IMG/VR virus record: IMGVR_UViG_3300020182_000012
Source of the DNA: a virus
Length of the DNA stretch: 64,000 nucleotides
Direction: 5' to 3' (one strand)
Below, piece after piece: positions 1-46,489 of the stretch (within the stretch, counting starts at the first letter, position 1; each line of letters begins with the position of its first letter). The position numbers were made by a program, and so were the translations under genes. The notes under the pieces are model-generated. The model was not told the origin of the DNA and ran no database searches. It saw only the letters and a list, made by a program, of their open reading frames with translations.

Positions 1-645
1 GTTAACACCGACGTATACTCCACCTTTGTCACGTGCAATCGTATCAATTCCAAACAGTTCATAATCTTCCTCGTCGAGAATAAATCGTGGCGCATTCAAC
101 CAACACATAACATTACTAGGACGAATCCAATCTGGTGCATGTTGTTTTTTACGTAGACTTAATATGAGACTCTCTGCTTCGTGGCATAACAAATTCAATT
201 GTCGAATATACCAACGAGTCTTAGGATCTGCTGCAAGGTAATGCGGTGACATCCTCCCGCTTTCACCTTGTGTCTCTTCAAAGTACAAGTGCAATTGATT
301 AAACTTGTCGTGATTGATGCCCAATGTTTCGCCATGTCCATTGTGTTCCTCTGGCTCAACTACATTGTCTATTGTAAAATGATCATCAATGTAATAATCA
401 ATACTGCTATCATTGATGCCTTTAATTGTTGCATTAATCTGATTAACAAGTAATTGCAAATCACGTTCGCCATCAGGAAATCCAAAAAAGCAATAATTCT
501 TTTCGAGATGGTAATTGTTATTAAGCAACCCTTCAAGTGCTGGTAGCCATTTACGGCTTAAACTATTATCATACACATCAATATACACAGGAAATAATTC
601 TCCTGTAATATTATGTCTAAGTTTCATTTCAATTTTATCCAGCAT
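1..645 (-). CDS. Hypothetical protein, 3'-truncated by the window edge (not in the ORF track)
   Basis: Manual translation from ATG at 645: MLDKIEMKLRHNITGELFPVYIDVYDNSLSRKWL...NLLCHEAESL...GGVYVGVN, open for 215 codons to the edge; overlaps the stop of the upstream gene. Confidence 0.85.
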   Translation of the reverse strand, partial: MLDKIEMKLRHNITGELFPVYIDVYDNSLSRKWLPALEGLLNNNYHLEKNYCFFGFPDGERDLQLLVNQINATIKGINDSSIDYYIDDHFTIDNVVEPEEHNGHGETLGINHDKFNQLHLYFEETQGESGRMSPHYLAADPKTRWYIRQLNLLCHEAESLILSLRKKQHAPDWIRPSNVMCWLNAPRFILDEEDYELFGIDTIARDKGGVYVGVN

Positions 646-1951
646 CAATGCTATCCCACCATTTTAATATATCTGTGTCGGCACTGAGAATATCTCTCAT
701 GCATAACTTGTTGTTGCGTATACTCTCAAGCGCAAGCATACGTCTTTTGCCTTTGCGCATACCTCTTTGGTATTCGTCTTCTGAGTACGTTTCTTCCATA
801 GTTGGTCTGTTTTTTAATTGTAGTAACACGTTTTGTAATGCATTGCCGAGTTTGTTGTTTGTAATTAGTTCGTCTACTAACCTGTTTAATATTTCACGCG
901 GCAATGCCAATGGACTCATAATGATGTCTGGCGAAAATGTAAATATTACCTTGGCCAGAATATCAACATTGAGATCGTCTGCTAACTTTTGTATATTAAC
1001 TACATCCATCATACCCGGTAATGTAAGTGTAAAGTCTAAACGCATTTGTCGGCGGTGTGTTGCAATTTCCAAACCTTGTTTGAAGTTGTTAACAAATACA
1101 TCGTATTTCAATCCTGTGCGTATGTATTCGCCTAAGGCGCCTGTGCCGTCCAAGCTTGCACACATTTGCCAATCACGTGTGTGTGCTAGTATATCATGAT
1201 ATAAATTTACACCTTTGTAATCAACTCTGCTGAGATTACTATTATACCTTGCATACAAGCGATGGGCATCACCTAATTCAACAATGCGTTTCATATAACG
1301 CCAGTGCTGTTCATACATAAGAGGCTCGCCGCCTACCCAGTAAATCTCTTCAACCCGGTGCTCTTCAACTGCTTCGCTAAATTCTTTTTCAATCTGTGTG
1401 TCTTGAAATTTTGTTATCTCTGCACGTACTTCTGGTAACATCCAATTGTTTTTAGGATTGGTTAGATCAGTCATGTTGTGCTTTTTTTGTTCTGTTTCCC
1501 AACTACTACTCAACATATCACCGCATGTGCGACATTTAAAGTTACACAAATTACTAAAACGATAATCCCAACTAATAGGTTTCATTGTAGTATATCCACT
1601 GGCATCAGTGTTTTCCCAAATGTCATTGTACTTGTGACGGAACATTCTTTCAAAGTAACTGCGATATACATCCGTGTTTAGCAACTGACTGTTGCACACA
1701 TCACATTCAGGCAATGTTTCTCCAGCCATCATACGACGACGAACACTTTGCATATGTTCATTGTTCCAGTGTTCGTCTAGGCTCACTGGTTGATATTCGC
1801 CGCTACCCGATTTAGTGTCAATATATTGTTCAAAGCTTTGTGCTTCTTCGCGACTTGCGCAGCACATACGCCGTTCAGTTTGCGGGCTTAGATACGTGTG
1901 TGTCCATGGTGCCATGCACAGGGTAGGTGGCTTGTTATCAGGTTTTTGCAT
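635..1951 (-). CDS. Radical SAM protein with N-terminal Twitch/SPASM-like Fe-S domain
   Basis: CNFKCRTC (CX3CX2C) and GGEP motifs; N-terminal C..PW / CC / C..C cluster. Confidence 0.9.
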   Translation of the reverse strand: MQKPDNKPPTLCMAPWTHTYLSPQTERRMCCASREEAQSFEQYIDTKSGSGEYQPVSLDEHWNNEHMQSVRRRMMAGETLPECDVCNSQLLNTDVYRSYFERMFRHKYNDIWENTDASGYTTMKPISWDYRFSNLCNFKCRTCGDMLSSSWETEQKKHNMTDLTNPKNNWMLPEVRAEITKFQDTQIEKEFSEAVEEHRVEEIYWVGGEPLMYEQHWRYMKRIVELGDAHRLYARYNSNLSRVDYKGVNLYHDILAHTRDWQMCASLDGTGALGEYIRTGLKYDVFVNNFKQGLEIATHRRQMRLDFTLTLPGMMDVVNIQKLADDLNVDILAKVIFTFSPDIIMSPLALPREILNRLVDELITNNKLGNALQNVLLQLKNRPTMEETYSEDEYQRGMRKGKRRMLALESIRNNKLCMRDILSADTDILKWWDSIDAG

Positions 1952-3009
1952 TAAAATGAATTCACTATTTCGTTATACCAATCAAAATCTTTAAATTTTG
2001 ATAATTCGCTTTTGAACAATTCTTTTTCTTTCGTAGTTGCTTTTTGTAATGACAATTCACCATACACAGTGTGTACATAAAAATTTGATGTAACATCAAA
2101 ATTTGGTAAAGATGCAAACCAATTGATTGTATCTTCTAAATCAAACACATTGTGTTTTCCTATAGTGTATGCGCAACTAATAGGAATACTGTTTAATAGG
2201 TTTACTTTTTTTATAACGTTTGATACCTTGTCCCATTTAAGGGGAGTACGAGTTTCTTCAAACCGTTCGCCGATTCCGTCGATACTAAAAAATAACTGAA
2301 CTGACTTTGCTTGCTCCCACAATGCAAGTGTTTCAGTAGACGGATAACAGCTACCATTTGTATTGTAGGATATATCAACGTTACTTAAATTTTTAATTTT
2401 TTTCAAAAGAGTCAAATGCTCTCCGGTTAGCAACGGTTCTCCACCGTTAAAATAAACCGACTGCACATCATCTAAGTTGGTGCCTATTAAATGATCGTAG
2501 TTGAGTTCGTCTCCTGCAACAATCTTAATACCTTCTTCGGCAGCCCAGAGACTCGAGTAACTCGAACTACATATTACACACTTAGCATTGCAAATTGGTA
2601 ATGTATTGTAATCTAAGCTATAGCACTTGTCTTTGTTGAGTTCGCTTTGCTGGAGGTTTATTGGTAAATTTTTAGATTTGTATTTTTTAATTGCAAGTGC
2701 TCTTGGGCTATAACCTCCATAAGATTCGTTCTCCCAACAATGCTCGCATGCTTCGGGTTTTTTATTATTTCTTACATCATTTCTTATATTTTCTAAATGT
2801 TGATTTGACATTAGATTATCATGTCCAGAAAAACGCTGTGAAGGTTTAGCTAAACAACACGGTGCTACTTGTTGAGTGTCGCCAGGAAATCTACGAGCGT
2901 ATAACCCGTGGAATACCAATGGGCAATAACTAGAACTCAAGAACTCCTTGAGTTCAGCTGCCTCTCGATCGATTGTTTCCTGAGAAACAGTTATAATTTC
3001 ACTTGGCAT
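1951..3009 (-). CDS. Radical SAM protein with N-terminal Twitch-like domain
   Basis: CNAKCVIC, GGEP, YNTNG; N-terminal CPL..APCC..CEHCW. ATG at 3009 preferred over GTG at 3036. Confidence 0.88.
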   Translation of the reverse strand: MPSEIITVSQETIDREAAELKEFLSSSYCPLVFHGLYARRFPGDTQQVAPCCLAKPSQRFSGHDNLMSNQHLENIRNDVRNNKKPEACEHCWENESYGGYSPRALAIKKYKSKNLPINLQQSELNKDKCYSLDYNTLPICNAKCVICSSSYSSLWAAEEGIKIVAGDELNYDHLIGTNLDDVQSVYFNGGEPLLTGEHLTLLKKIKNLSNVDISYNTNGSCYPSTETLALWEQAKSVQLFFSIDGIGERFEETRTPLKWDKVSNVIKKVNLLNSIPISCAYTIGKHNVFDLEDTINWFASLPNFDVTSNFYVHTVYGELSLQKATTKEKELFKSELSKFKDFDWYNEIVNSF

Positions 3010-3415
3010 GCTCAGCAACCCTTTTGCGTAGGTCACTACTGCTGAATCTATGATCTCGTTTGTTAAAGTGCAGTGCTATTCCACGTTTTTGACAAACATC
3101 TTTTCCACTAAAGTCTTCGTGTTTGTATTCTTCTCCTAAAAACCGCACATCTAATTGAAACAGTTCTAGTATATCAATAACGTCTTGTTCGGTTTGATAC
3201 GGAACAATCTCATCAACAAACTTGAGTGCGTTAAGTTGCGCATAACGCTCCACTAACGTTTGTACTGGTTTGTTTTTGGTGTCAGGTCTGTCAATTGTAG
3301 GATCACTTTGTAACCCTACAATTAAGTAATCACAATTATCTTTTGCTTCACGCAACATTCCAATATGCCCAGCGTGTAACAAATCAAACGTGCTAAATGT
3401 AATACCTTTTCTCAT
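2999..3415 (-). CDS. tagD: Glycerol-3-phosphate cytidylyltransferase-like nucleotidyltransferase (TagD family)
   Basis: TFDLLHAGH (HXGH) motif, DYLIVGL, VDEIVPY, C-terminal RxxxxSSS. Confidence 0.85.
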   Translation of the reverse strand: MRKGITFSTFDLLHAGHIGMLREAKDNCDYLIVGLQSDPTIDRPDTKNKPVQTLVERYAQLNALKFVDEIVPYQTEQDVIDILELFQLDVRFLGEEYKHEDFSGKDVCQKRGIALHFNKRDHRFSSSDLRKRVAEHAK

Positions 3416-3987
3416 ATCAATTCCATTTGCTGTGGTACAATCTTATCCAACACAGTAGTAGTAAACAATTCTGCGCCTTTGTGCACATTAGCTGCCCATT
3501 CTGCACCTTGGTCTTCCCCGTCAGCATCGCTGTCAGAAATATACTTGTAGCAGTCAAATGGTGTGTCAAATTTTTGACAAACCTTTGCTAGTGCATATGC
3601 TTCCATTTCAACCACTTGGTAGTTAATATGTGGTACACTAAAGCTGTCTCCGGTTCCGCATACAAACAGACTATCGTGCTTGGTTTGGCAAATAATCATT
3701 TGTTCTTCGTCCCCTGGGCTAACATACAGCGGAAGACCAAGTGGGGTACAATCCATATCACGCTCAATCACTGCGCTCACTCCAACAAGTTGTCCTTTAA
3801 GTGCAGCACTTCCCCCGGCTGATCCATAGTTTATTACTTTACTATATCTATTAGAATTATTATAACACAATTCTGTAGTTAATGCAATACTTGCATTAAC
3901 CTTTCCAACACCGGTTACTAACTTTTTAAAGCCATGTGGCAAGGCACCTGGTAGTTCTTCTTCTAAGGCGATTACCACTAATATCAT
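3412..3987 (-). CDS. mtnN: MTA/SAH (and 5'-deoxyadenosine) nucleosidase, PNP_UDP_1 family
   Basis: ALEEE, TGVGKVNA, INYGSAGG, TGDSF, VEME, ISD motifs. Confidence 0.85.
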   Translation of the reverse strand: MILVVIALEEELPGALPHGFKKLVTGVGKVNASIALTTELCYNNSNRYSKVINYGSAGGSAALKGQLVGVSAVIERDMDCTPLGLPLYVSPGDEEQMIICQTKHDSLFVCGTGDSFSVPHINYQVVEMEAYALAKVCQKFDTPFDCYKYISDSDADGEDQGAEWAANVHKGAELFTTTVLDKIVPQQMELI

Positions 3988-5186
3988 GCAGGGCCTCCAT
4001 ATTCGATTGCATCAGCAAGTTCTTTATGGTGATCACGCAAATCTTGATTTCTGCGCCAATCCACGTCTTTTACTTTCATGCGTAATACGTTACCGTCCAA
4101 GCTGACTCCACTATTGATAAAGTCAATAATATTATTGAATTCTTTTTTATGAAATTCAGTTACATCGGCATTTTGCAAACGTTTAATTGCTATCTGTTTT
4201 GCTGCTTCGGGCAATGTTCCCACACTGTGGTAGTATGCTTCGTGCAACATGTTCCAGTATACAAACTCAAAGGATCTGGTATCAATCCAATTGGCCAGAC
4301 CTTCGAGATACATTACATTAAACACATTAACAGTTGCGCAACATTGTAACTGTATGTTGTTTAGTCTATCTCGTAGATGTTCAAAGCGATCCATGTTGTT
4401 GTTAACCAGTTGCCACTCGGCATTAGCACGTTGATATTCGAATCGTTCGTCAACATCATCAATACTAAATGCAATTTCTACTAGCTTAAAGTGTTTCCAT
4501 ATAGATTCGGCATTCTCTGGATAATGTGTACCATTGGTATTATAGTGTATTTCGATGTTGCCTGCAATGCCTGCGTCTATGCAACGCTGCAACAAGGCAA
4601 AGTGTTCTTGTATCATAAATGGTTCGCCACCCGTGAATTCCAAGTAACGAATTTGGTCCATCATTGGATCAATTTGGTCCCAAAACTTTTGGTTCTTTCT
4701 GGGCCATGCGCCTTTTTGCAGCATTTCATAATGAAAGCTGTCCTTGCCTTCAAACTTGATCTCTTCGGTGGCAAATGTGCTACTGCTCCAGCTTCCGCAA
4801 ATACGACATTTGAGATTGCAAATGTTACCTAGTTTAAAATCAATAAACACCAAAGGCTTGGCATCAGCAGTCCACTCCGTATCTTTTACAATATGCTTGA
4901 GTCGATTTAGTGTATGCATACGTTTACTAGTACGCCCACTGCGTTCTTCGTTCCAGCACTTTCTACATGTCTGCGGCTTTTTAGCATCCAAGAAGTCTTG
5001 ACGCAAGTTGTTCATATAATTGCTGTGGTGTATTTCATTTAGTGTGCTGTTATTGAGATCAAACTTAACACCATCAGCATCTTTGATTTCGTCCTCGGCT
5101 AAACAACAAGGCCGGGTAGTGCCAATCGGTGATGTTTCAATGCTTACCCAAGGCAGCACACAGAATGTATCGTGAGGTAATTTCAT
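3984..5186 (-). CDS. Radical SAM protein with N-terminal Twitch-like domain
   Basis: CNLKCRIC, TGGEP, YNTNG; CVLPW..RPCC..CRKCW. Confidence 0.9.
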   Translation of the reverse strand: MKLPHDTFCVLPWVSIETSPIGTTRPCCLAEDEIKDADGVKFDLNNSTLNEIHHSNYMNNLRQDFLDAKKPQTCRKCWNEERSGRTSKRMHTLNRLKHIVKDTEWTADAKPLVFIDFKLGNICNLKCRICGSWSSSTFATEEIKFEGKDSFHYEMLQKGAWPRKNQKFWDQIDPMMDQIRYLEFTGGEPFMIQEHFALLQRCIDAGIAGNIEIHYNTNGTHYPENAESIWKHFKLVEIAFSIDDVDERFEYQRANAEWQLVNNNMDRFEHLRDRLNNIQLQCCATVNVFNVMYLEGLANWIDTRSFEFVYWNMLHEAYYHSVGTLPEAAKQIAIKRLQNADVTEFHKKEFNNIIDFINSGVSLDGNVLRMKVKDVDWRRNQDLRDHHKELADAIEYGGPA

Positions 5187-6562
5187 AAATCATACTTTCT
5201 AAATTCGTCGATTAACCATGGAAACAACTCGCGCCAATCTGTTTTGCGTCTTGCATCTGTGTTTTTAAGATGGTTAAATAGCTTACCAATCTCTACTACA
5301 TTTGGTTCATTGCTTTTACTTTGTTTTGCAATACCCAACAAATAGTTTTTACTTGAAATTTCTTCTGCTGTTTTTTCGGGTTTTAGTGCTAATGCTTTAT
5401 CAAAGTCATCAGAAAAGATATCTCCAAATATATCAATAAACATGTAACTCGGGCCGTTCACACTGTTTTGATAATGATAAACAGTGCGTACCTTATTCCA
5501 TTCTTGTATTTTGCTTAACAAGTCTGGCAATGTTTTCACAGTCAACGGCGTAACAGTTGAACTAATAATAAGATTAATCCAATCACACCCTAATAGATAT
5601 TCAAAGTTTGTTTCCCATGTTGTTAAATTTAAAGGAAAACGTACATACTCTTGCTGTGGGCCCCAACAATCAAGACTTGCAGTCACTTCAAACTCCCTGA
5701 GGCACCCTATATCTATTAAATGTTTAACACGATTTGTTACTTTTTTTACATAGTCAAGTTTTGCATTTAGATTTGTAAAGATTTGTAATTTCAATTCCGG
5801 GGCAGGATATTCTTCAAACAAGTCTAAACATTCTTCTAGCTCACTCTGATACAAAGGCTCGCCGCCTAATATATTAAAGTTAGTCAGGTACTGCCCGTTT
5901 ACTTTTAACCAATCAAATAGCTTTTGTTTATTAGATTGCAAATTTGGATCTTTGACAAATGCTTTATCACCAAATCTAACATTTTCAGCGTTCCATAAAC
6001 TGCTAAATTTTGGGCCACAATACAAGCACTTGAGATTACAAGTATTGTCAAAGTATATTTCAAGTGTCCTTGGTGTCACATGTGTTGCAATGGGATTATC
6101 ATTTAGCTCAACTGGAGCATGCTGCCCAGGAAAGTCTAAGTTGGTAATCCTGTCACTTTGGCCGCCTGCTTTTTCAATGTTAATGCAATAGTTACATCCT
6201 ATTTTTGGCCAGTTACCTTCTAACATCTGTTTACGATCATCAACTTTGCTTGGCGTATTATGAAAATCAAATTTGTCAATGTCAAACTTATGATGATTGG
6301 TTCTATGACAACTAGCAGTTTCGCCGGTGGTTAGAAATACTGTGCTCCAATTCCATTTAAGCTGGCATGCAGTCGGTGTATTAATTGGAAATGGTTTATT
6401 AACGAGTTTGCTTTTGTGTTTAAACTGCTCTGTGCTATACCCATATAGATTGATGCATTCATCTTGAATATGTTGAGGTAACAATGCAAAGTCTGCTTCC
6501 TGCTTACACTCGGGCCAGCTTGGGTCCTTTATATCATCATAAAATTCTTCCCAGGTGCTCAT
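5183..6562 (-). CDS. Radical SAM protein with N-terminal Twitch-like domain and an extra N-terminal module
   Basis: CNLKCLYC, LGGEP; CQLKW..SCH..CNYC. Confidence 0.9.
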   Translation of the reverse strand: MSTWEEFYDDIKDPSWPECKQEADFALLPQHIQDECINLYGYSTEQFKHKSKLVNKPFPINTPTACQLKWNWSTVFLTTGETASCHRTNHHKFDIDKFDFHNTPSKVDDRKQMLEGNWPKIGCNYCINIEKAGGQSDRITNLDFPGQHAPVELNDNPIATHVTPRTLEIYFDNTCNLKCLYCGPKFSSLWNAENVRFGDKAFVKDPNLQSNKQKLFDWLKVNGQYLTNFNILGGEPLYQSELEECLDLFEEYPAPELKLQIFTNLNAKLDYVKKVTNRVKHLIDIGCLREFEVTASLDCWGPQQEYVRFPLNLTTWETNFEYLLGCDWINLIISSTVTPLTVKTLPDLLSKIQEWNKVRTVYHYQNSVNGPSYMFIDIFGDIFSDDFDKALALKPEKTAEEISSKNYLLGIAKQSKSNEPNVVEIGKLFNHLKNTDARRKTDWRELFPWLIDEFRKYDL

Positions 6563-9851: not shown

Positions 9852-10887
9852 TGAAAATATTTTTCATCTTGTGTTTTTGTTCAGTACTAAATTCTTTTAG
9901 TCTATGTTTATTATAACGCAAATCTGGTAACATGTCAAGATACATTTGTTCAAGTTCAGATTTTGGCATGTCCACTAAATGATGTATCACACTCATTAAC
10001 GCATCATGTTGTCCGGTGGTTTCAACTGGAATATGATCCCAATAATGATTGAATGTGCGGAAGCCTCTGTCTCTCAACCATTGATATGATCTTGGATTGC
10101 CGTGTACATGAAAAGGACGCAATCCTACCATTGGCTTCCAAATTTTTTCTGTCATAAACACAGGCTTCCATTCATCAAATTCAGTTTCGCTTACTACATT
10201 CAAAAAATGATTTTTCCATAGGTCAAGACGTCCAACAGTAACAAGATCATTGGGTACACCGGCATGGTCATCATGATCGCCTTGCGTTTGATTGTACGCT
10301 GCCGGGAGATCATCAATTGTCATTGGAACTACTTCCAGACCTTGTTGCCAATCTGTGCCGTCTTTTGCTGCGCCGCCTAGTGTGACAATACCACGTTCTA
10401 ATAAATGGGGGTTCTCACGCAAAATATTCGTAATTTCAATCCTGTGCCGTCTTGGTTTTCTTTGATATAACATGTATGCAAAATCAGCACTTTGCATTAC
10501 TACTTGGTCTTCTGTGTACGCAGGCATACGATCGTTTGCAATCATGGCATGAAAGTTCCACTCCTTTGCTTCACCTTCGTACATGCCTATTCTGTGTACA
10601 TTTTTAATTTTGTATTTGTTGATTATTTTTTGTAAATCTTCTGTGAAAAGATATTCAGGATCGATTACACATAGCAAAAATAAATTATCAAATTCACCTT
10701 CTAAATTCATCGTTTGTTTCCAGCAATCGTTATCAAATTGACTGCCAAACCATGTTGTGTTAATTAAAAGATTTTTCTCATTCGGAAAACGTTGCTTAAT
10801 TTGCATTTCTGTGCTATCAATTATTTCCAACTCGTCTTTACCGTACGGCCAAGTCAACGGGAAGTGTGTCCCGATTCTTACAAGCAT
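9844..10887 (-). CDS. Putative glycosyltransferase-like protein (GT10-like TEK motif)
   Basis: VVSET...FMTEKIWKP...PF...G......LR..GFRTF; paralog of 13147-14088. Confidence 0.6.
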   Translation of the reverse strand: MLVRIGTHFPLTWPYGKDELEIIDSTEMQIKQRFPNEKNLLINTTWFGSQFDNDCWKQTMNLEGEFDNLFLLCVIDPEYLFTEDLQKIINKYKIKNVHRIGMYEGEAKEWNFHAMIANDRMPAYTEDQVVMQSADFAYMLYQRKPRRHRIEITNILRENPHLLERGIVTLGGAAKDGTDWQQGLEVVPMTIDDLPAAYNQTQGDHDDHAGVPNDLVTVGRLDLWKNHFLNVVSETEFDEWKPVFMTEKIWKPMVGLRPFHVHGNPRSYQWLRDRGFRTFNHYWDHIPVETTGQHDALMSVIHHLVDMPKSELEQMYLDMLPDLRYNKHRLKEFSTEQKHKMKNIFNV

Positions 10888-11705
10888 TCTATCATTTTCC
10901 TTATCCCGTGCTCCAATGGAGTATCACAGATTAGTCCCAAACTTTGCATTCTTTCAGTGCTACCAACCCTGTGGCCAGCACCTTCTGGTTCATTGGTTTG
11001 CGTTTTAACTGGTATTGTTACACCGTGCACTAGTTTGTAAACTATTTCGGCTACTTCTTTAAATGTAATTGCATTACCAGATGCAATGTTTACAGTAACT
11101 GGTTCTTCTCTATGCAACAAGTATTCAAATACTTTAAGTGCATCATCAATGTACACCCAGTCTCTTGTTTGTGTTCCGCTGCCCCACACACTACATTCTC
11201 CCTGGCGTGCTCTTTCTATTATAGCAGGCAATGGATAGTCCATGTCTTGTCCTGGACCGTATATGCTAAAAGGACGCATAACATGGACAGGAATGTCAAG
11301 TGTTTTTAGCATACCCTCTGCTACTAGTTTGGAGAGTCCATACAAGTCAAAGGTTTTTGAATTTCCAAACTGTTCTTCGTGCATTGGAGTATTCGGCGAT
11401 TCTTGCAAGTGTGTTGGATATGCTGCACAACTACTAGGGTAAATGATCTTTTTACAAAACTCATCTGCCCACTTGAATGTTATTCTATCTATTTCTATAT
11501 TTTCAGCAATACGCCATTTGTTATTGTCTATACCTTTACGCCCGCCCACAAAGGCTGCAAAATGATATAGACAATCAAAACGTTCATAAGGTAAATTGCG
11601 TCTTACATCTTGTGTAAAGGGTGTAACATCATGCCCCTTTTCTTTAAGATACCTAACAGTATTCCTGCCAAGGAACCCGTCTGCGCCAGTGATTAATACT
11701 TTCAT
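10878..11705 (-). CDS. NAD-dependent nucleotide-sugar epimerase/dehydratase (extended SDR)
   Basis: TGADGFLG, SS, YGLSK (YxxxK), IYGPG, GSGTQTRDWVYIDD. Confidence 0.92.
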   Translation of the reverse strand: MKVLITGADGFLGRNTVRYLKEKGHDVTPFTQDVRRNLPYERFDCLYHFAAFVGGRKGIDNNKWRIAENIEIDRITFKWADEFCKKIIYPSSCAAYPTHLQESPNTPMHEEQFGNSKTFDLYGLSKLVAEGMLKTLDIPVHVMRPFSIYGPGQDMDYPLPAIIERARQGECSVWGSGTQTRDWVYIDDALKVFEYLLHREEPVTVNIASGNAITFKEVAEIVYKLVHGVTIPVKTQTNEPEGAGHRVGSTERMQSLGLICDTPLEHGIRKMIECL

Positions 11706-11710
11706 ACAAA

Positions 11711-11718
11711 TATGTATC
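11711..11718 (-). promoter_or_regulatory. Late-promoter-like box GATACATA, 5 nt before the SDR start codon
   Basis: One mismatch to the TAAATA core; same spacing to ATG as other late boxes in the window. Confidence 0.4.
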
Positions 11719-13160
11719 TATTTTAAGTTGCTGGCTGCATATTTACACTCGGCCCACCAGTCAGCCATTTCGGGGAATGTTTTTAAAAAGTCTGTTCCGC
11801 GCCGGCGATCGTGCTCAGTAAAGAACTTATAGAAGTCTGCTTTATTGCGATTAACGTACTCAGTGGATAGTTTTTGTCCATTGCGCATCCACGCAATATC
11901 TCTGTCTAATCGGTTAACTTCATAGTCTTTAAATCCGTGAAACCGAGTGGCTTCAGTTTCTAGATTGTCCAACATCCAAGACTTAATATTTTCAAGTTCA
12001 TACACATAGCTCTCAGGCAACAGTTGCAGGCTTTGCCAAGAAGGTGTGCGCAGCACAGGTGTATCAAACCACACTCGTTGATACGTTGTACTATATGCTT
12101 GCCTTAGTTCAAGTATAGAAACAAACAATTTGTGTAGAGTAGTTACACTTAGATTGCTCATTGTTATGATAAATGTAACACTGTTACGTTCCGGAATGTC
12201 ACGTAAAAATTGATGTACTCTATCCCACAACAAGTCAAAGTCGAGTCCATGGCGTACATATTCTACTTGCTCGAACATCCCATCCAAGCTTACATACTGC
12301 ATAAAGTGTTCCACAGTGTCTGGTTGACTGCATATTTTTGAGACATACTTCTTGTACTTTTGCCACAGTTTTTCATCTACGCTAAAGTTTGATGTTGTGC
12401 TTAGATGCAAGTCTGACTTGGGATTGGCCAGCACATGATCAAATACTCGATATGTATTTTTATCCATCAACGGTTCGCCACCAGTCATTCGGAAGTGCTC
12501 TAAATCTGGATACAATGTGGGCCACCATTCCCAGAATGCATCGACATACGGATTGTGTTCTCTTGCAGGAATAGGTCTACGTTCACCAGCGAAATGTGCT
12601 GGATGGTTGTGCGGTGTGCTAGTTGGCCATGCACCGTGTTTTTCTGTTTCAGCCATCCATGTTGAACTATACTGCGGCGAACAATAACTACAACTCAGAT
12701 TGCATGCGCTGTTAAAGTCTACTTCAACGTAACTAGGAGTAATGTCTTTGTCCCATGATGCGTTTGTTATTTTTTCAAAATCTTTCATTGCCCAAGGTTC
12801 GCCGCTGCGATAATGTCTATCACTTAGCTTTCCGTTGTCTTCCATAGCCCAGCAGTAATTACATTCAGTTGGGCGCACTCCTTCGAGCATCAACTTGCGT
12901 TGTTGTTTTTTATAATCTGTGTTGTGTAGCGCACTGGGATTTTTCTTAATAGCTTCTGCATCTGCTTTGTGCAATGGCGGATGATAACAACTATTGTTCA
13001 TGCCAGTTGTTAAATGTAAACTAAGTTGTTTCCACTTAGCTAAACACATACTAGGACTTACTGTGTCTAACTTCTGTTGTGCTTGTTCAGCATCAGTGAG
13101 AAAATTACTTTTAAAATTTTCATCAACGCCATCACCTTTGTTTTGTTTAGTATTTGTCAT
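11718..13160 (-). CDS. Radical SAM protein with N-terminal Twitch-like domain
   Basis: CNLSCSYC, TGGEP; CLAKW..SCYHP..CNYCW; close paralog of 7835-9187; ATG at 13160 preferred. Confidence 0.9.
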   Translation of the reverse strand: MTNTKQNKGDGVDENFKSNFLTDAEQAQQKLDTVSPSMCLAKWKQLSLHLTTGMNNSCYHPPLHKADAEAIKKNPSALHNTDYKKQQRKLMLEGVRPTECNYCWAMEDNGKLSDRHYRSGEPWAMKDFEKITNASWDKDITPSYVEVDFNSACNLSCSYCSPQYSSTWMAETEKHGAWPTSTPHNHPAHFAGERRPIPAREHNPYVDAFWEWWPTLYPDLEHFRMTGGEPLMDKNTYRVFDHVLANPKSDLHLSTTSNFSVDEKLWQKYKKYVSKICSQPDTVEHFMQYVSLDGMFEQVEYVRHGLDFDLLWDRVHQFLRDIPERNSVTFIITMSNLSVTTLHKLFVSILELRQAYSTTYQRVWFDTPVLRTPSWQSLQLLPESYVYELENIKSWMLDNLETEATRFHGFKDYEVNRLDRDIAWMRNGQKLSTEYVNRNKADFYKFFTEHDRRRGTDFLKTFPEMADWWAECKYAASNLK

Positions 13161-14088
13161 TTTTAAATATTTCAAAATCTTTTGTGGTTAGTTCCATAAA
13201 CCGTTTTTTATTATGCTGTAGTATGGGTTGCATTTCCTGATGCATAGTTCTAAGTTCTTGAGTGCTTTTTTTTGCTAGAGAATCAATGACTTTAATAATT
13301 TCATGCGGTTGATAGTCAGCTGGATCTTCAGCATAACCTTCGTTCCACCAACGATCAAATGTTTGAAAACCCATGTTACGCAGTCTGTGTAAGTGCCATT
13401 GAGGCCCTTGTATTATAAATGGCGTTGAAAGCATTATTGGCCTCCACGTTTTTTCAGTGGGATAAAATGTATTTCCGGTATAGTAGGTTTCGCAAACAAT
13501 TTCAATTAAAAAATTATTATATTCTTGATAAAAATTATGGTGTTGTTTTACTATAGGATAAGACACTTCGTCTTTTATAATAGGTGAATTTTCTAATAAA
13601 TTTACTGTTTGCGGTAATGCAATTGTTCCATATAATTCAACTAACTTGTCCAATCCAAGATTGTTCCTATGAAAGTCCATATTAGGATTATAATGAAATG
13701 TTTGGTTTGCTAAATTGTGTTCGTATAGATAGCCACTTAGATATAACCTGTGTACATTACTGCGTCCAATAAACATTCCAAATGTATTGTCTATAGTTTT
13801 GTTTACTACTACGTCTTTAAGGAAATTTATTGTATCATCTACCCAATTATTTGATATAATATCAAATACAATATTATTAATGTTTTTTTGTACTGGATTT
13901 CTAAAATTAACAACTTTTGCTGGATAGTCGCCAATCAATTCTACTAGCCCAAGTGTTTCAAAGTCTGGACCTTCGCTGTTTAAATCTAGTACCAGATCTT
14001 GTTTTGTTGCCTTGGCAGTAGCAATAGCCGTACAAACTTCAGCAAAATTCCAAACTTTGCTGTCACTGGTAACTACAACTACATTCAT
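13147..14088 (-). CDS. Putative glycosyltransferase-like protein (GT10-like TEK motif)
   Basis: IVCET...FYPTEKTWRP...PFIIQG.....LR.MGFQTF..WW.E.Y. Confidence 0.6.
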   Translation of the reverse strand: MNVVVVTSDSKVWNFAEVCTAIATAKATKQDLVLDLNSEGPDFETLGLVELIGDYPAKVVNFRNPVQKNINNIVFDIISNNWVDDTINFLKDVVVNKTIDNTFGMFIGRSNVHRLYLSGYLYEHNLANQTFHYNPNMDFHRNNLGLDKLVELYGTIALPQTVNLLENSPIIKDEVSYPIVKQHHNFYQEYNNFLIEIVCETYYTGNTFYPTEKTWRPIMLSTPFIIQGPQWHLHRLRNMGFQTFDRWWNEGYAEDPADYQPHEIIKVIDSLAKKSTQELRTMHQEMQPILQHNKKRFMELTTKDFEIFKNDKY

Positions 14089-15015
14089 CTACCAGCCTTC
14101 TTGACTACGAATAACATCAATCTCGCGAGTCATAATATTTTTATTATTCCAGTTACTACGATAGTGATGTTTGAAAAACTTACTCTGTTCAGGAGAAAAT
14201 GTGTTCATTGGCAAATCTAATTGTCTGTTTAATGCATTAGCATGTTGTTCGACTATGTTAAGTGGATCAGTGTTTTCTATTTCGTTCCAAATTTGTTCTA
14301 GATTGTCGAACCATTGTACTTCTTTATGATCCCAATCTGTTAGCATGGTTTTGTATGTTCCGAGTCTTGCACCAGCAATTGCCCACAGACCGTAATCTGC
14401 ATCGCTACCCACATTTTGCCAGACAGTCAAGTGATCGAGATTGCGACTGTGCACTCGTTCTTTAAATTCGCTGACACTTGGTTTGCGGCCTCTGTCAAGG
14501 CACATCTTTACACCTTCACGAAAGCCAGCACGCCAGGCCTGTTTAGCACTTCCATTTGGATGTGTAGTTGAATAGCAATTGTACATCGGCCAGTACAGCG
14601 GATCAAAACAAAACTCTACATCAGTATCATCTGCGCCTTCACTTGCTTCATGTGTGCGCATGTTCATAACAAACTCTTTTGTCCAAGAACTCATGCCGCC
14701 GTTACCATACATCAAACCATTAACATGATTACGTGCTCTCCAGCGATAAACTGCCTTTTCGTAGCTACTGTCCTTGTATTCAATGGTTTGATTGAAAAAA
14801 GACTCCTCAGGAAGATTGTCACCATCAATTAATATAAAACGTTCAGTATCGCTTGCTTGTGCTGCGGCTTTGTGTGCAGCATCGCTGCCTTCTACCCCAT
14901 CAACACGTTTTGCCCACGGAACCATGTTGCGTATCTTAACCCAAAACTCTTCTTTTTGTGGTTCATCGTAAGAAAGATAGATACAGTCCAAATCGGCAAT
15001 ATCAATTGAATCCAT
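14089..15015 (-). CDS. Glycosyltransferase-like protein (GT-A fold)
   Basis: IYLSYDEP, AHKAAA, FILIDGDN (DxD). Confidence 0.65.
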   Translation of the reverse strand: MDSIDIADLDCIYLSYDEPQKEEFWVKIRNMVPWAKRVDGVEGSDAAHKAAAQASDTERFILIDGDNLPEESFFNQTIEYKDSSYEKAVYRWRARNHVNGLMYGNGGMSSWTKEFVMNMRTHEASEGADDTDVEFCFDPLYWPMYNCYSTTHPNGSAKQAWRAGFREGVKMCLDRGRKPSVSEFKERVHSRNLDHLTVWQNVGSDADYGLWAIAGARLGTYKTMLTDWDHKEVQWFDNLEQIWNEIENTDPLNIVEQHANALNRQLDLPMNTFSPEQSKFFKHHYRSNWNNKNIMTREIDVIRSQEGW

Positions 15016-15029
15016 GTTAACTCCGTGAT

Positions 15030-15365
15030 TTATCTTGTGTAGGGTTTAAAATCTTGGCCATTAGCAACCAAACACGCTGTTCCGTTATCATACAAACTCA
15101 CTAGTGTCCAGGTGCCCGAGTTCTGGTTAACAAAAAACATCATTGAACTCCAATATTCTTTGCTGTCAGATGAACTCCGTTGCATGCCTCTGCCACTGTG
15201 CAAAGGTTTTTCGCCATAATTGTTCATAACCGTATTAGTCATCTGAATAACTGGTGCACAAGGTTGTGTAGTAAGAAAAAATTTAGTTTCTTGTTCTTGC
15301 GACAACACCGTTGCTGGTAGTAGTACTAGTATTCCTGCAATAAATGCATTTAATATATACTCCAT
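15030..15365 (-). CDS. Hypothetical protein with predicted signal peptide
   Basis: Hydrophobic N-terminus (AFIAGILVLLPATVLS); two Cys; AAGGA RBS. Confidence 0.7.
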   Translation of the reverse strand: MEYILNAFIAGILVLLPATVLSQEQETKFFLTTQPCAPVIQMTNTVMNNYGEKPLHSGRGMQRSSSDSKEYWSSMMFFVNQNSGTWTLVSLYDNGTACLVANGQDFKPYTR

Positions 15366-15391
15366 TTAATATTTTCCTTATTATTATAAAG

Positions 15392-15399
15392 TATTTACT
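15392..15399 (-). promoter_or_regulatory. T4-type late promoter-like box AGTAAATA
   Basis: TAAATA core at a gene boundary, upstream of the modification cluster. Confidence 0.55.
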
Positions 15400-15742
15400 T
15401 TAAATAATACGTTTTACTAGCCCACTTAATATCACTGTTGTTGTCCACAATCATTACATTATCAGCTCTACACCTAGTACCAGTCTCAGATGGTACTAAT
15501 TTTGTCCAACTCACAGCATCATTTTGCCTAACAATCTTGCCTTTAAGAACAAGTATATCATACCGTCCTTCGCTGTGTTGTTTTTGTGTTACTGTAATAT
15601 AATCGCCATCATGTTGCCCTTCCATACTGTAGAACAATGGTTCTCCAGTTTCTTTATTATAGTACAATCTATATTCATAGTCAACCGGTTTATTATCCGC
15701 TATTATTTGATCAAACAATTGTGCTAGTTCTTCTTCAGTCAT
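15395..15742 (-). CDS. Hypothetical phage protein
   Basis: 115-aa ORF overlapping the upstream stop; YRLYYN..TGEP. Confidence 0.75.
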   Translation of the reverse strand: MTEEELAQLFDQIIADNKPVDYEYRLYYNKETGEPLFYSMEGQHDGDYITVTQKQHSEGRYDILVLKGKIVRQNDAVSWTKLVPSETGTRCRADNVMIVDNNSDIKWASKTYYLK

Positions 15743-16514
15743 AGTACTGCCCTAATTGCTGTGCTAATTCTTTTTGATGATAGTGAACAAATCCGTGTTG
15801 ATTATGCCCGTTGATACGTAGTACTCCATCGTCTACTTCCCATGTCAGCTCTTTTGCCCAGTCGTCGGCACTAGTGCCAAGTATTCTCGGTTTCATGTGT
15901 ACAATTTGAGGACCTGTGCCCGGAGTAACAAAGTCGCTGCCATTTAATGCATAAATTAAATCTGTATTGGCTATTTCGTCGCTGCCTAGTTTAATGTTAA
16001 GTTTGATCTTATCCCAATCTTCAAAGCACTGTTTTACATTGTTAAAGAATCGCTGTGCATCGGGACTTACTCTCCAGTAAGTAATTGCATTATATACATC
16101 GGGTAAATTGTTATGATCAAATATTTTCCTATAGTGTCGCACAGTTGATGTAGTTCCGTGGAAGTCTCGTGCACCAGTGCTAATCCAAACCGGCTTGTTT
16201 CGATACAAGGGCCACCAATGGTCAATCGGACCACTAACAACCATGTCTGCTTCTAATTTTACAGTTTCGTGAAACGGGCTAGCATAAAATACTTGCCAGT
16301 CAGTGGACCAGCCGCCTGTATTGCCTTGTGGAAATTGCCTAACATAATCAAAAAGAGGATTTGCATAGTTCTCATGATCTGTAACCAAACAAATCTTTAC
16401 ATCCGGGTGCCAGTATTTGAGACTTTTTGCAAGTGTTTCTGCACAAGAAATATAGTCAACACCGTCGGTGATTCCTGCAACAATTAGATATCCTCGATCA
16501 GCTTCGTACTGCAT
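15735..16514 (-). CDS. Glycosyltransferase-like protein (GT-A/GT8-like)
   Basis: Start reassigned to MQYEAD (GGAGA RBS); LAKSLK, SPFHETVKLEADM, HY near the C-terminus. Confidence 0.65.
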   Translation of the reverse strand: MQYEADRGYLIVAGITDGVDYISCAETLAKSLKYWHPDVKICLVTDHENYANPLFDYVRQFPQGNTGGWSTDWQVFYASPFHETVKLEADMVVSGPIDHWWPLYRNKPVWISTGARDFHGTTSTVRHYRKIFDHNNLPDVYNAITYWRVSPDAQRFFNNVKQCFEDWDKIKLNIKLGSDEIANTDLIYALNGSDFVTPGTGPQIVHMKPRILGTSADDWAKELTWEVDDGVLRINGHNQHGFVHYHQKELAQQLGQYYD

Positions 16515-17292
16515 ACAGTTTCTCCAAATAACTCTTGCACATAACATGTAGATCATGATTTTTAACACAAATTTTCTTTTTGCGGTTATCATTAATATAG
16601 TTAATCCACCATATATCATCAACTAGGTCAGCTTCTACATCAGTTTCTACATTTGCCATTGGCCACGGGATTTCGCACTGATGTGGGTGTGTATTTCCAT
16701 TAGCCAATAATAATGCAATGCTTATTGCAAAGTCGTTGCGATATTGTTTAGTGTTGAATCCAAACAATGTTCCGTAGTGCGCATAGTTTTGTTCTACCAT
16801 CTTCCAAACATTAAACACATCTTGTGTAAATTGACTGTGACGGTCAAAAATAACAACTGTTGCCCACCACATGTGTGATTTTTTTGTCCCAAACGTTTGC
16901 AGCCTCGGTAACGGCTGATGTACATTGCGAACATGTCTGTGGCATAAGAACGGTTGTGAACTATCTAGTAACGGTGCCAACGAATCGCCGTTGACCATGT
17001 AATCTGTGTCAACTAATAGTGTTCTATCGTAAGGTGATAGATCGAGTGCAGCGTTTCTGCCAAAATTATACCAAGTTGTTGTTTCTTTTCTGTCATGAAA
17101 ATATCGCCTATTGGTGTTTTTACCGCGATCAACTATAACTTGACTGTCAAACATATCTGAATCAACAGATTTGTCAGTAACCAGTGTTACCGGAATATTG
17201 AGGTGTTTTTTTATTCGTCGTGCACACTCAACAGCAAGTTTAGTATACTGTATTTCACTGTCAAACGCAAAAAGTAAAGCGCCCGTTGTCAT
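16498..17292 (-). CDS. Glycosyltransferase-like protein (GT-A/GT8-like), paralog of the neighbour
   Basis: SPYDRTLLVDTDY (DxD), WATV, RNDFA, HVMCK. Confidence 0.65.
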   Translation of the reverse strand: MTTGALLFAFDSEIQYTKLAVECARRIKKHLNIPVTLVTDKSVDSDMFDSQVIVDRGKNTNRRYFHDRKETTTWYNFGRNAALDLSPYDRTLLVDTDYMVNGDSLAPLLDSSQPFLCHRHVRNVHQPLPRLQTFGTKKSHMWWATVVIFDRHSQFTQDVFNVWKMVEQNYAHYGTLFGFNTKQYRNDFAISIALLLANGNTHPHQCEIPWPMANVETDVEADLVDDIWWINYINDNRKKKICVKNHDLHVMCKSYLEKLYAVRS

Positions 17293-17594: not shown

Positions 17595-17616
17595 GCTAGT
17601 AGTTAGCATGCAAACA
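17586..17616. promoter_or_regulatory. Perfect 13-bp inverted repeat covering the start codon and a late-promoter-like box
   Basis: TGTTTGCATGCTA-GTAGT-TAGCATGCAAACA. Confidence 0.75.
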
Positions 17617-18729: not shown

Positions 18730-18732
18730 GTA

Positions 18733-46479: not shown

Positions 46480-46489
46480 GGACTTATAC

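Follow-up and report, generated by a model that had tools for sequence, protein, structure and literature searches.

What does a giant phage make with a row of radical SAM (rSAM) enzymes encoded next to its fibre genes? The analysed window is a 64,000-nt stretch from an uncultured giant T4-like phage, the complete relatives of which are 328–344 kb (about 330 kb). Seven rSAM genes lie in an island that forms one tightly packed minus-strand gene block directly behind the fibre genes. We tentatively read the island as a cytoplasmic pathway that builds a glycan and tailors it by radical chemistry; its product would be a radically edited sugar decoration, with the virion fibres as our leading guess for the acceptor.

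A tblastn search with rS428 (E ≤ 1e-3) identified relatives on 99 viral contigs, from which 80 loci with 55–98% identity were kept. About 80 environmental jumbo-phage contigs have a backbone in common, namely the fibre gene, u106, GT264, GT295, u115 and GTA308, followed by a fixed series of five orthologous rSAMs, by x358 and finally by a carbamoyltransferase. Neighbouring backbone genes overlap by −4 to −17 nt across the 80 loci. Variable cassettes (the SDR and TEK pair, the nucleotidyltransferase, the nucleosidase and extra rSAMs) occupy fixed slots. This conserved synteny may reflect simple inheritance, which counts against the reading above. The features of the window are as follows.

fib309 and fib463, 17641..20124, minus strand: Ser/Thr-rich fibre-like virion genes immediately upstream of the island
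u106, 17289..17609, minus strand: first gene of the island operon, in 52–56 of 80 loci
GT264, 16498..17292, minus strand: nucleotide-diphospho-sugar-transferase or GT8-like candidate
GT295, 15735..16511, minus strand: GT-A-like candidate
u115, 15395..15742, minus strand: conserved small protein, in 52–55 of 80 loci
u111, 15030..15365, minus strand: small accessory protein with a signal-peptide-like N-terminus
GTA308, 14089..15015, minus strand: conserved protein, GT-A-like in its N-terminal half
TEK313, 13147..14088, minus strand: TEK-motif paralog in variable slot A
rS485, 11718..13175, minus strand: core N-twitch rSAM, first of the conserved five, SCY/H subtype (NF033640, 313.4 bits)
SDR275, 10878..11705, minus strand: NAD-dependent epimerase/dehydratase-family SDR, accessory (PF01370, E 1e-31)
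TEK347, 9844..10887, minus strand: TEK-motif protein, possible GT10-like transferase
u223, 9180..9851, minus strand: accessory ORF
rS450, 7835..9187, minus strand: core N-twitch rSAM, second, SCH ligand subtype (NF033640, 291.5 bits)
rS428, 6559..7845, minus strand: core N-twitch rSAM, third (NF033640, 415 bits)
rS459, 5183..6562, minus strand: accessory N-twitch rSAM (NF033640, 220.5 bits)
rS400, 3984..5186, minus strand: core N-twitch rSAM, fourth (NF033640, 333.2 bits)
Nuc191, 3412..3987, minus strand: MTA/SAH (5'-deoxyadenosine-type) nucleosidase-like protein, accessory (PF01048, PNP_UDP_1, E 4e-11)
NT138, 2999..3415, minus strand: cytidylyltransferase-superfamily nucleotidyltransferase, accessory (PF01467, E 2.5e-13)
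rS361, 1951..3036, minus strand: accessory N-twitch rSAM (NF033640, 188.8 bits)
rS438, 635..1951, minus strand: core N-twitch rSAM, fifth (NF033640, 290 bits)
x358 (N-terminal 216 aa), 1..648, minus strand: follows the last core rSAM and is cut by the window edge
Eighth N-twitch rSAM copy, 47504–49012: assigned by architecture

The genes upstream of the island are virion genes. For fib463, the matches include a PHROG virion structural family and virion proteins of PA5oct and Atu_ph07, with a weak match to a tail-fibre family. Ser and Thr together make up 32% of fib309 and 22% of fib463. The initial annotation placed the cluster co-oriented with, and directly downstream of, the tail-fibre genes; its orientation and its position just behind virion genes are confirmed. 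By hydropathy (KD19), no membrane segment is found in any island enzyme; the only island segment above 1.6 belongs to u111 (2.22).

All seven island rSAMs pass the curated cut-off of NF033640 (N_Twi_rSAM, NCBIfam; 170 bits), with scores of 189–415 bits, and rS428 is the paralog nearest to the family consensus. In an alignment of eight paralogs, four N-terminal Cys residues (C33, C51, C94 and C97; rS428 numbering), CX3CX2C (C148, C152 and C155) and GGEP (G210-G211-E212-P213) are invariant, in agreement with the earlier description of seven CX3CX2C/GGEP enzymes with N-terminal auxiliary Cys residues. All eight copies have their twitch domain at the N-terminus, and in three paralogs Pfam SPASM is placed ahead of Radical_SAM (residues 12–87, 9–78 and 33–98). 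Positions 35–108 of the paralog profile A5 align with residues 182–257 of BtrN, corresponding to its C-terminal twitch (E 9.7e-6). A profile search identifies the peptide enzyme TvgB as the best solved relative of the rSAM core and BlsE as the second-best. Among the 80 loci, the rS400 cluster is found in 72 and rS438 orthologs in 65–70, while rS459 orthologs are found in only about 4–6. rS361, a diverged rS400-type duplicate that clusters with rS400, is missing in the close relative G001. Many rS428 orthologs have an additional N-terminal domain of about 125–145 aa. Each complete relative encodes 6–12 rSAMs above the NF033640 cut-off. To our knowledge, NF033640 is a catalogue entry that has never been studied, and none of its members has a known reaction.

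Several properties of the family could point to protein substrates. Most characterised SPASM/twitch rSAMs use peptides, and TvgB is a peptide enzyme; TPR repeats are fused to about 14 of 51 long NF033640 family members; and bacterial members form tandem rSAM arrays without sugar genes, with other rSAMs as the sole enriched neighbours of bacterial loci (24/118). These bacterial neighbourhoods count against the glycan-pathway reading, as do the TPR fusions, which would suit protein substrates. With the island adjoining fibre genes, the rSAMs might modify fibre or other virion proteins directly, in a RiPP-like manner, the GT-like proteins being secondary. We consider this distinctly unlikely: neither an RRE domain nor an obvious precursor peptide was seen, phage family members are linked to GT-A-like genes, natural GT2-rSAM fusions exist (P0233 and P0299), and sugar-nucleotide and amino-sugar enzymes are encoded within the same island.

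GTA308 is present in 70–72 of the 80 loci. In its AF2 model (mean pLDDT 70), the N-terminal half matches GT-A enzymes with VIA Z of 8.0–9.0 over about 135–145 residues, tied with IspD and other nucleotidyltransferases; Foldseek matches have E values of at least 1.9e-3, and chlorovirus PBCV-1 A64R (PDB 2p6w) is among the fold matches. A DxD-like D64-G-D66-N is invariant in 13 orthologs. The nearest Atlas clusters of GT264 are Nucleotid_trans/GT8 (feature score 0.95–0.96), and D95-x-D97 is invariant. GT295 (65–66 of 80 loci, median length 256 aa) belongs to phrog_1903, a family without annotated function, and is marginally similar to GT264 (E 0.044); the likely true start is the ATG at 16511, for a length of 258 aa. 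TEK313 and TEK347 are true paralogs (E 4e-14) with a nearly invariant E-T ... T-E-K, and slot A of G001 holds another gene in place of TEK313. The nearest named Atlas family of the TEK proteins is GT10, at a score of only 0.78; this score and the motif make a GT10 link possible. No Pfam hit, including PF00852, was obtained for 19 TEK family members (E ≤ 1), and no PDB hit by profile.

The GT-A-like fold match and DxD-like motif of GTA308 and the GT8/Nucleotid_trans likeness of GT264 favour the glycan-pathway reading. Counting against it are the fold tie with nucleotidyltransferases and the absence of a curated GT match: no Pfam or PHROG glycosyltransferase model matched the GT-like ORFs at E ≤ 0.01, and the GT264 alignment matched none at E ≤ 1. 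The earlier assignment of GT-like genes is borne out in part, by the candidate GT-A-like half of GTA308 and the Atlas placement of GT264; the TEK genes are indeed a related pair, but none passed a curated GT model, and the GT10 link of the pair comes from motif and Atlas score.

Three accessory enzymes had been named a TagD-like cytidylyltransferase, an MTA/SAH nucleosidase and an SDR epimerase, and all three families are recovered. For NT138 (7 of 80 loci) the CTP_transf_like assignment is confirmed; the two top-scoring NCBIfam models, HldE domain II (81 bits) and TagD-type glycerol-3-P cytidylyltransferase (60 bits), fall well short of their cut-offs. Nuc191 (16–17 of 80 loci) matches the nucleosidase NF004168 with 78 bits; it adjoins the nucleotidyltransferase where both occur. 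The best NCBIfam row of SDR275 is GDP-L-fucose synthase (71 bits, below cut-off), and the SDR275-TEK347 pair occurs together in seven loci (L016, L020, L025, L027–L029 and L090). The block 9229–11711 is missing in G001. No family hit was obtained for u223 or u115 in Pfam and PHROG searches.

The cluster continues past the window edge, as had been noted, and its further content is seen in G001. Beyond the edge, G001 encodes MetK (SAM synthetase), a TobZ/NodU-type carbamoyltransferase, a DegT aminotransferase, a 4,6-dehydratase-like SDR, a GFO/IDH/MocA oxidoreductase and an amidinotransferase (E 5e-15 to AGAT and 2e-13 to StrB1). In relatives, the set of GFO/IDH/MocA, DegT, StrB1-like amidinotransferase, TobZ-type carbamoyltransferase and twitch rSAMs follows an aminoglycoside logic, and a cyanophage paper names a similar trio 'antibiotic synthesis genes' (PMC12801897). 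The product could accordingly be a small, free pseudo-oligosaccharide that resembles an aminoglycoside or aminocyclitol and carries guanidino and carbamoyl groups, made during infection and acting on the host or competitors; the early-type promoters described below would fit. We regard this as distinctly improbable. The same enzymes build ordinary O-antigen sugars, neither a cyclitol synthase nor an exporter or self-resistance gene was seen, and in most loci the amino-sugar genes are accessory or fall outside the 10-kb flanks.

Relatives encode ThyX or ThyA a few kb past the island, and phage GTs frequently glycosylate DNA. Sugars might then be put on a modified phage DNA base and tailored there, for which early-type promoters would also be suitable. 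This reading is very improbable. In relatives, the ORF beside the ThyA-family gene looks DHFR-like by eye in its first 60 residues, fitting ordinary dTMP synthesis; a Pfam search confirmed the ThyA-family gene, but detected no PF00303 gene in two of four near-complete relatives. Moreover, the annotated stretches showed no hydroxymethylase, DNA kinase or TET/JBP, and the island is far bigger than known DNA-glycosylation modules.

The initial annotation also described the cluster as apparently late-expressed and listed three late-type boxes. The canonical late core ATAAATA occurs eight times in the window, with no copy below 20150; each copy coincides with a same-strand gene start or precedes one by no more than about 60 nt, and most of these genes are virion genes. 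TATAAATA is located at 20150–20157. None of the copies in the window precedes an island gene. Across the 80 loci, ATAAATA precedes fib463 in 23 of 29 cases, u106 in 1 of 52, rS450/485 in 1 of 158, and no other island gene. Two of the proposed boxes were rejected: 17600–17607 falls within the first codons of the 17289–17609 gene, and 11711–11718 reads ATACATAT. Only 15392–15399 resembles the late core; specifically, AGTAAATA at 15398–15392, upstream of u111, is a late-core-like variant. The GTAAATA variants at 15398 and 11746 leave the late-core reading slightly open. Ahead of u223, TTGACA-N17-TATAAT is found at 9938–9910 (12/12 match).

The gap between the fibre gene and u106 (median 64 nt) holds a terminator and a sigma-70 promoter in relatives: of 44 distinct relatives, 19 have a terminator there and 17 a sigma-70-type (early-type) promoter. 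The junction of the window itself is a bare 31 nt with neither element. Because the island lacks a canonical late box and the junctions of relatives carry terminators and sigma-70 promoters, late expression is not supported. In relatives, the terminator and early-type promoter set island transcription apart from that of the late fibre genes, which counts against the virion-acceptor guess; any co-expression with the fibres is conjectural.

A further possibility is that the enzymes act early in infection on the host surface, with host glycans that are lipid-linked or part of the envelope (LPS, O-antigen or capsule precursors) as substrates, where they would block superinfection or keep progeny from sticking to debris. 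Many relatives have early-type promoters and a terminator where the island begins, which is consistent with this; the strain-level cassette variation resembles O-antigen diversity, and peripheral O-antigen GTs likewise have no membrane segments. Host O-chain modification is also the function favoured for the glycosyltransferases of the pelagimyophage host recognition cluster (PMC7029224). Nevertheless, we consider host-surface remodelling unlikely. The island contains no priming transferase, flippase, polymerase, ligase or membrane protein. In addition, the backbone is highly conserved across phages with presumably different hosts, including a Ralstonia phage, which makes host-specific surface editing less expected, as this should vary more.

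The glycan-pathway reading is favoured by the match of the rSAM twitch to that of BtrN and the place of BlsE among the solved relatives, together with the sugar-nucleotide-type enzymes in the window and G001, and by the backbone and slots of the 80 loci with their GT2-rSAM and x358-rSAM fusions. The multi-step making and tailoring of a sugar, as first proposed, is retained as the most plausible interpretation of the gene content and conserved backbone, while its late expression is not. The island would be a single translationally coupled operon encoding soluble cytoplasmic enzymes, which would generate activated sugars, carry out their transfer and then remodel the sugar through radical chemistry. 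The GT-A-like proteins would lay down a conserved core glycan. Each of the five core rSAMs would catalyse a distinct step initiated by H abstraction (oxidation, epimerisation, deoxygenation or C-C coupling), modelled on the C-terminal-twitch enzymes BtrN and BlsE, which act on sugar-like substrates; HygY, SpeY and AprD4 likewise perform radical steps on such substrates. The nucleosidase and SAM synthetase may sustain SAM turnover, and the cassettes may vary the product among phage strains. The weakest step is the acceptor, for which Ser/Thr-rich fibre or virion proteins of the phage itself are the leading guess from gene adjacency; this adjacency and the lack of membrane proteins make a cytoplasmic acceptor more likely, but are no proof.

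x358 is a candidate rSAM partner or substrate-presenting protein. It is present in 62–63 of 80 loci and has a full length of 358 aa in G001; P0262 combines it with an N-twitch rSAM in a natural fusion (hhalign 99.7%, E 2e-26). Its confident AF2 model (pLDDT 83.5) has no Foldseek match in the PDB; a weak, borderline PDB match by VIA (Z about 8) is to a cyclophilin-like barrel with a helical insert.

The island resembles several known systems. Like NF033640 members in general, all seven rSAMs and the eighth copy have a four-Cys twitch followed by a CX3CX2C barrel; in the phage, the family is expanded to 7–8 copies per window, with five fixed orthologous positions and with x358 and GT-A-like partners that the bacterial loci lack. 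BtrN and BlsE, among the nearest solved relatives, have a homologous twitch with the full Cys ligand set, and their systems likewise have amino-sugar and aminoglycoside-type enzymes nearby. However, their twitch is C-terminal, sequence identity is low, and the island rSAMs are phage-encoded next to virion genes. In marine T4-like phages (pelagimyophages and cyanomyophages), the host recognition cluster varies in content next to the tail fibres and a giant baseplate protein; it contains glycosyltransferases, mostly of GT8, as well as rfaE-type genes and 'radical SAM cassettes' (PMC7029224). The island similarly has GT-like genes and rSAM cassettes by the fibre genes, but those phages are 132–164 kb, versus 328–344 kb for the complete relatives here, and that paper mentions the cassettes briefly, without a five-rSAM backbone, N-twitch assignment or partner protein. 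Virion glycosylation in mycobacteriophages Che8 and Corndog, as cited in PMC12801897, and PBCV-1 A64R provide examples of soluble virus-encoded GT-A enzymes beside or acting on structural proteins. Those systems have a demonstrated virion glycan and no radical SAM enzymes; for the island, a virion glycan is a conjecture.

The gene order recurs in a minimal island of the cultured Ralstonia phage RsoM2USA (ORF354–349), the order being fibre, u106-like, GT264-like (ORF353), GT295-like (ORF352), GTA308-like (ORF350) and rS485-type rSAM (ORF349). All six ORFs are annotated as 'hypothetical protein' in the RsoM2USA record, and the module lies directly behind proteins detected in its virions (PMC8504454). 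GTA308 is 36% identical to ORF350 (E 5e-57), and rS485 is 34% identical to ORF349 over its full length (E 2e-86). That this order is kept behind virion proteins in so distant a phage favours the glycan-pathway reading. RsoM2USA differs in having a single N-twitch rSAM in this module, the rS428 query matching one place in the record, and neither x358 nor the carbamoyltransferase is found in the stretch examined. Its first module gene is preceded by TAAATA-type boxes, not by a sigma-70 promoter.

All seven radical SAM (rSAM) genes that the initial annotation had reported in the island, the minus-strand operon at 1-17609 beside the fibre genes fib309 and fib463 (17641-20124), score 189–415 bits against the NCBIfam model NF033640 N_Twi_rSAM (curated cut-off 170). 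The auxiliary cysteine cluster is N-terminal, as had been claimed: a Pfam SPASM-type domain precedes the Radical_SAM domain. The array is real, and the earlier description of its genes is largely accurate. An eighth N-terminal-twitch (N-twitch) rSAM gene lies far from the island.

635-1951, minus strand, N_Twi_rSAM gene (NF033640)
1951-3036, minus strand, N_Twi_rSAM gene (NF033640)
3984-5186, minus strand, N_Twi_rSAM gene (NF033640)
5183-6562, minus strand, N_Twi_rSAM gene (NF033640)
6559-7845, minus strand, N_Twi_rSAM gene (NF033640)
7835-9187, minus strand, N_Twi_rSAM gene (NF033640)
11718-13175, minus strand, N_Twi_rSAM gene (NF033640)
47504-49012, plus strand, eighth N-twitch rSAM gene (502 aa)

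Four N-terminal cysteines, CX3CX2C and GGEP are invariant in the alignment of the eight paralogs. Their pairwise identity is only 19–28%, indicating that they are old paralogs. N-terminal positions 35–108 of the paralog profile align with the twitch domain that BtrN carries at its C-terminus (E 9.7e-6), and the nearest solved cores are those of TvgB, BlsE, viperin and SkfB. The N-terminal 110 residues of rS428 (rSAMs are numbered by length in aa) gave nothing useful when searched alone against the PDB. The eighth gene is upstream of a gp46-like (SbcC-type) nuclease gene (49022-50779) and is preceded by two ORFs without a Pfam match (45565-46479 and 46448-47503). Its extra N-terminal domain (~100 aa) carries a 'DISNFF/DISNCF' motif common to long (~550 aa) rS428 orthologs in other phages.

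To our knowledge, NF033640 is a catalogued enzyme family without any known reaction. We found no paper under the N_Twi_rSAM family names, and nothing in the literature on jumbo phages, radical SAM enzymes and glycosyltransferases together. A single-sequence search with rS428 retrieves ~10,500 cluster representatives (50% identity) at E ≤0.001, a set that will include some other radical SAM families, and 1,581 at 1e-30. Genuine bacterial members belong chiefly to Bdellovibrionota, Bacteroidota and Elusimicrobia and frequently form tandem arrays, with as many as eight copies. Bacterial context is uninformative as a route to function, because the neighbours are mostly further rSAMs (24/118), with no consistent sugar genes among them. 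In an Elusimicrobia MAG (MJ-2014_bin-0981; loci L096, L098, L099 and L106), tandem arrays comprise three to five proteins of ~560-1130 aa, each with an N-twitch rSAM domain. In natural fusions of the family, the partner is a GT2 glycosyltransferase in two sequences, TPR repeats in ~14 of 51 long forms, or a second rSAM. In Vibrio phages K566 and K567, four N-twitch rSAM genes occur in another setting; apart from the rSAMs, the K566 neighbours have nothing in common with the island.

The window comes from an uncultured giant phage of the T4 superfamily. Atu_ph07, GAP32, CBB and related jumbo phages have baseplate wedge proteins ~35% identical to the one encoded at 34372-37779, and the minus strand from 17.6 to 45.5 kb is occupied by virion genes, including those for a 4501-residue protein and a gp5-like protein. 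The nearest record, G001, is an 89-kb IMG/VR fragment with 83–98% DNA identity across the shared parts. Complete relatives with terminal repeats measure 328–344 kb, and near-complete or complete relatives encode 6–12 N-twitch rSAMs above the NF033640 cut-off, five in the island and the others scattered. The full phage island is also present on 'bacterial' contigs of Haliscomenobacter sp. MAG EUL_031 (L133 and L146) and Legionellales MAG SP228 (L143), of which L133 also matches the fibre-like fib309, the small ORF u106, GT264 and GTA308. These are evidently jumbo-phage contigs binned into MAGs, and the binning is at best a weak hint at the host.

A search with the rS428 protein returned 99 IMG/VR contigs, 80 of which were fetched (55–98% identity) and all their ORFs clustered. 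The island proved to be a fixed backbone with exchangeable parts. Specifically, gene order in nearly every locus is fib463, fib309, u106, GT264, GT295, u115, GTA308, slot A, rS485, slot B, rS450, rS428, rS400, slot C, rS438, x358, (MetK), carbamoyltransferase. A convergent group comes next, in which an amidinotransferase is accompanied by unknown proteins, or x524 by SDR, DegT and GFO genes. Of the seven rSAMs of the window, five occupy fixed orthologous positions. The other two, rS361 and rS459, are accessory, as are the genes for the nucleotidyltransferase, nucleosidase and SDR and the two TEK-motif genes; comparison with G001 shows that accessory blocks are gained and lost cleanly. The SDR (SDR275) and one TEK gene (TEK347) form a travelling pair. 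Slots in other relatives hold rSAMs of other architecture (the classical C-terminal SPASM form and short forms) and an amidinotransferase-like protein. In the window, the tight co-oriented cluster described earlier is borne out, with all genes from 17609 down to 1 on the minus strand and mostly overlapping by a few bases. It also runs past the window edge, as had been proposed; the products encoded in G001 past the left edge of the window are listed here.

Rest of x358
SAM synthetase
TobZ/NodU-type carbamoyltransferase
Amidinotransferase (AGAT E 5e-15, StrB1 E 2e-13)
GFO/IDH/MocA, DegT and 4,6-dehydratase-type enzymes
ThyX

The conserved partner candidate x358 is present in 62–63 of the 80 loci, always after the last core rSAM. 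Its structure model is confident (pLDDT 83.5, pTM 0.83) and has no match in the PDB by Foldseek, and a wider structural search (VIA) reaches only Z ~8, with cyclophilin-like barrels carrying a helical insert; this modelled resemblance is a lead. The relatives that the viral structure library contains are phage proteins without exception, none of them characterised; one has 768 residues and another comes from Atu_ph07. In a single instance, a 754-residue metagenomic protein, an x358-like domain (hhalign 99.7%, E 2e-26) is fused to an N-twitch rSAM, which fits a physical partnership as far as one sequence can suggest it.

The cytidylyltransferase-superfamily, MTA/SAH-nucleosidase-like and SDR genes match their initial description. 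For the first, a refinement applies: it scores higher with HldE domain II than with TagD, and both scores fall far below the cut-offs. The glycosyltransferase-like ORFs of the initial description are borne out in part only: GTA308 has a GT-A-like half and GT264 lies near GT8 clusters, but none of the ORFs matches any curated GT model. In the AlphaFold model of GTA308 (14089-15015; mean pLDDT 70), the first 154 residues superpose on GT-A enzymes with Z 8-9, a score that nucleotidyltransferases sharing this fold equal, and D-G-D-N is invariant across 13 orthologs. GT264 (16498-17292) adjoins Nucleotid_trans/GT8 clusters in a protein atlas (0.95-0.96), and the similarity of GT295 to GT264 is only marginal. 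The two TEK-motif proteins are paralogs (E 4e-14), and their link to GT10 consists of the motif plus a weak score (0.78) in the atlas. No family emerged for GTA308, GT264, the TEK proteins, x358, x401 or x524 from searches of Pfam, PHROGs and the PDB by sequence or profile. The C-terminal half of x524 in G001 (L010:17493-19067) and the N-terminal, GT-A-like half of GTA308 are homologous.

None of the island enzymes contains a hydrophobic segment of membrane grade; in the whole island such a segment occurs only at the N-terminus of the accessory protein u111, where it resembles a signal peptide. That protein is the only non-cytoplasmic-looking island product and has its own GTAAATA box. In ~19 loci a small protein with a signal-peptide-like N-terminus lies between u115 and GTA308 (window 15030-15365, minus strand; cluster c22 in relatives).

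Radical SAM enzymes rarely act on sugars, and most of the cases characterised so far come from antibiotic pathways. Taken together, the genes present, their arrangement as backbone plus cassettes, the fusions to GTs and the closest characterised enzymes point to cytoplasmic assembly of a sugar-based product, with radical editing. That the product is sugar-based is fairly probable. Specifically, cytoplasmic enzymes would assemble it and then edit it by radical chemistry. This pathway combined with virion fibre proteins as acceptor ranks first, as a tentative reading in which the virion target is a candidate only and a leading guess. Ser and Thr make up 32% of fib309. Direct modification of protein by the rSAMs ranks third and seems distinctly unlikely.

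The island belongs with phage sugar islands beside fibre genes. Work on pelagimyophages briefly mentions radical SAM cassettes and GT8 genes next to the fibre genes of marine T4-like phages, and it favours modification of the host O-chain (PMC7029224). Host envelope glycans as the target of the island pathway rank second and are rather unlikely. In cyanophages, a similar trio was termed 'antibiotic synthesis genes' (PMC12801897); a free aminoglycoside-like compound as the island product is, in our estimate, a little less likely than direct protein modification. The literature that we found does not describe the fixed five-rSAM backbone, the x358 partner and its fusion, the slot architecture, the promoter/terminator boundary or the RsoM2USA minimal module.

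The motif ATAAATA was taken as the late core of this phage, because it is depleted in the window (8 copies against ~19 expected) and all copies sit at a same-strand gene start or no more than about 60 nt upstream of one, the gene being in most cases a virion gene. This shorter core was used since the exact T4 late box TATAAATA occurs once only in the window.

20150, minus strand, ATAAATA
20175, minus strand, ATAAATA
37800, minus strand, ATAAATA
38213, minus strand, ATAAATA
45479, minus strand, ATAAATA
55136, plus strand, ATAAATA
57378, plus strand, ATAAATA
59138, plus strand, ATAAATA

No copy in the window lies below 20150, and the three late-type boxes previously placed in the island are not borne out at those positions; two GTAAATA variants occur at 15398 and 11746. 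Across the 80 loci, ATAAATA precedes fib463 in 23 of 29 cases, fib309 in 8 of 54 and essentially no island gene. Island genes in these loci overlap their predecessors by 4–17 nt, and only u106 is preceded by a true gap. Among 44 distinct relatives, this gap contains a perfect-stem hairpin with a T-run in 19 (0.5% of random 90-nt windows) and, in 17, a sigma-70 promoter that matches at 10 or more of 12 positions (2.25% of random windows), often TTGACA-N17-TATAAT ending ~7 nt ahead of the ATG. Sigma-70-type promoters are the early class in T4-like phages. The marine pelagimyophages are described as lacking middle-mode regulators (PMC7029224). The gap measures just 31 nt in the window and its closest kin and shows neither the terminator nor the sigma-70 signal, so that late transcription from the fibre promoter could read through there. 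A perfect TTGACA-N17-TATAAT at 9938-9910 (minus strand) is located within the 3' end of TEK347, and the start of the accessory ORF u223 follows 59 nt further on; the site belongs to an accessory block missing from G001.

Judged from these motifs, expression of the island is probably early in many relatives. With early-type promoters present in relatives, and with ATAAATA preceding essentially none of the island genes, the earlier argument from late timing, which had counted against pre-replicative DNA base modification, does not stand. DNA as acceptor is the least probable of the readings, and very improbable. Early-type promoters weaken the picture of a product made together with the fibres; an early start on building sugar precursors remains compatible with them. 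In a joint reading, the N-twitch rSAMs would be a new class of glycan- or glycoconjugate-editing enzymes, working as an ordered five-enzyme line with x358 as dedicated partner under early-type promoters. The heavily edited product would be a sugar decoration with guanidino or carbamoyl groups, or else a free compound resembling an aminoglycoside. All of this holding at once is improbable, and we know of no cellular pathway for such a heavily edited product.

Megablast of the island against cultured phages gave no match. At the protein level, a comparison of GTA308 with 50,697 cultured-phage records gave a single match, which is ORF350 of Ralstonia phage RsoM2USA (36% identity, E 5e-57). The order there is fibre-like ORF355, u106-like ORF354, GT264-like ORF353, GT295-like ORF352, ORF351, GTA308-like ORF350, rS485-type rSAM ORF349 (34% identity to rS485, E 2e-86) and a second GTA308-like domain (L171:14353-15042). 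All ORFs of the module are annotated as hypothetical. ORF356, ORF359 and ORF361, just upstream, were found in virions, and the paper describing the phage mentions neither ORFs 349/350 nor the word 'radical' (PMC8504454). A whole uncharacterised rSAM family sits in a fixed, widely conserved phage operon, and RsoM2USA, as a cultured carrier of the minimal module, makes the question directly testable. The product, once worked out, would give the family its first reaction and reveal whether giant phages put unusual sugars on fibres, on the host or on something else. In RsoM2USA, the gap between ORF355 and ORF354 (L171:9305-9379) contains two TAAATA motifs and a hairpin without a T-run before the first gene of the module, whereas a terminator and a sigma-70 promoter occur at this junction in marine and freshwater relatives.
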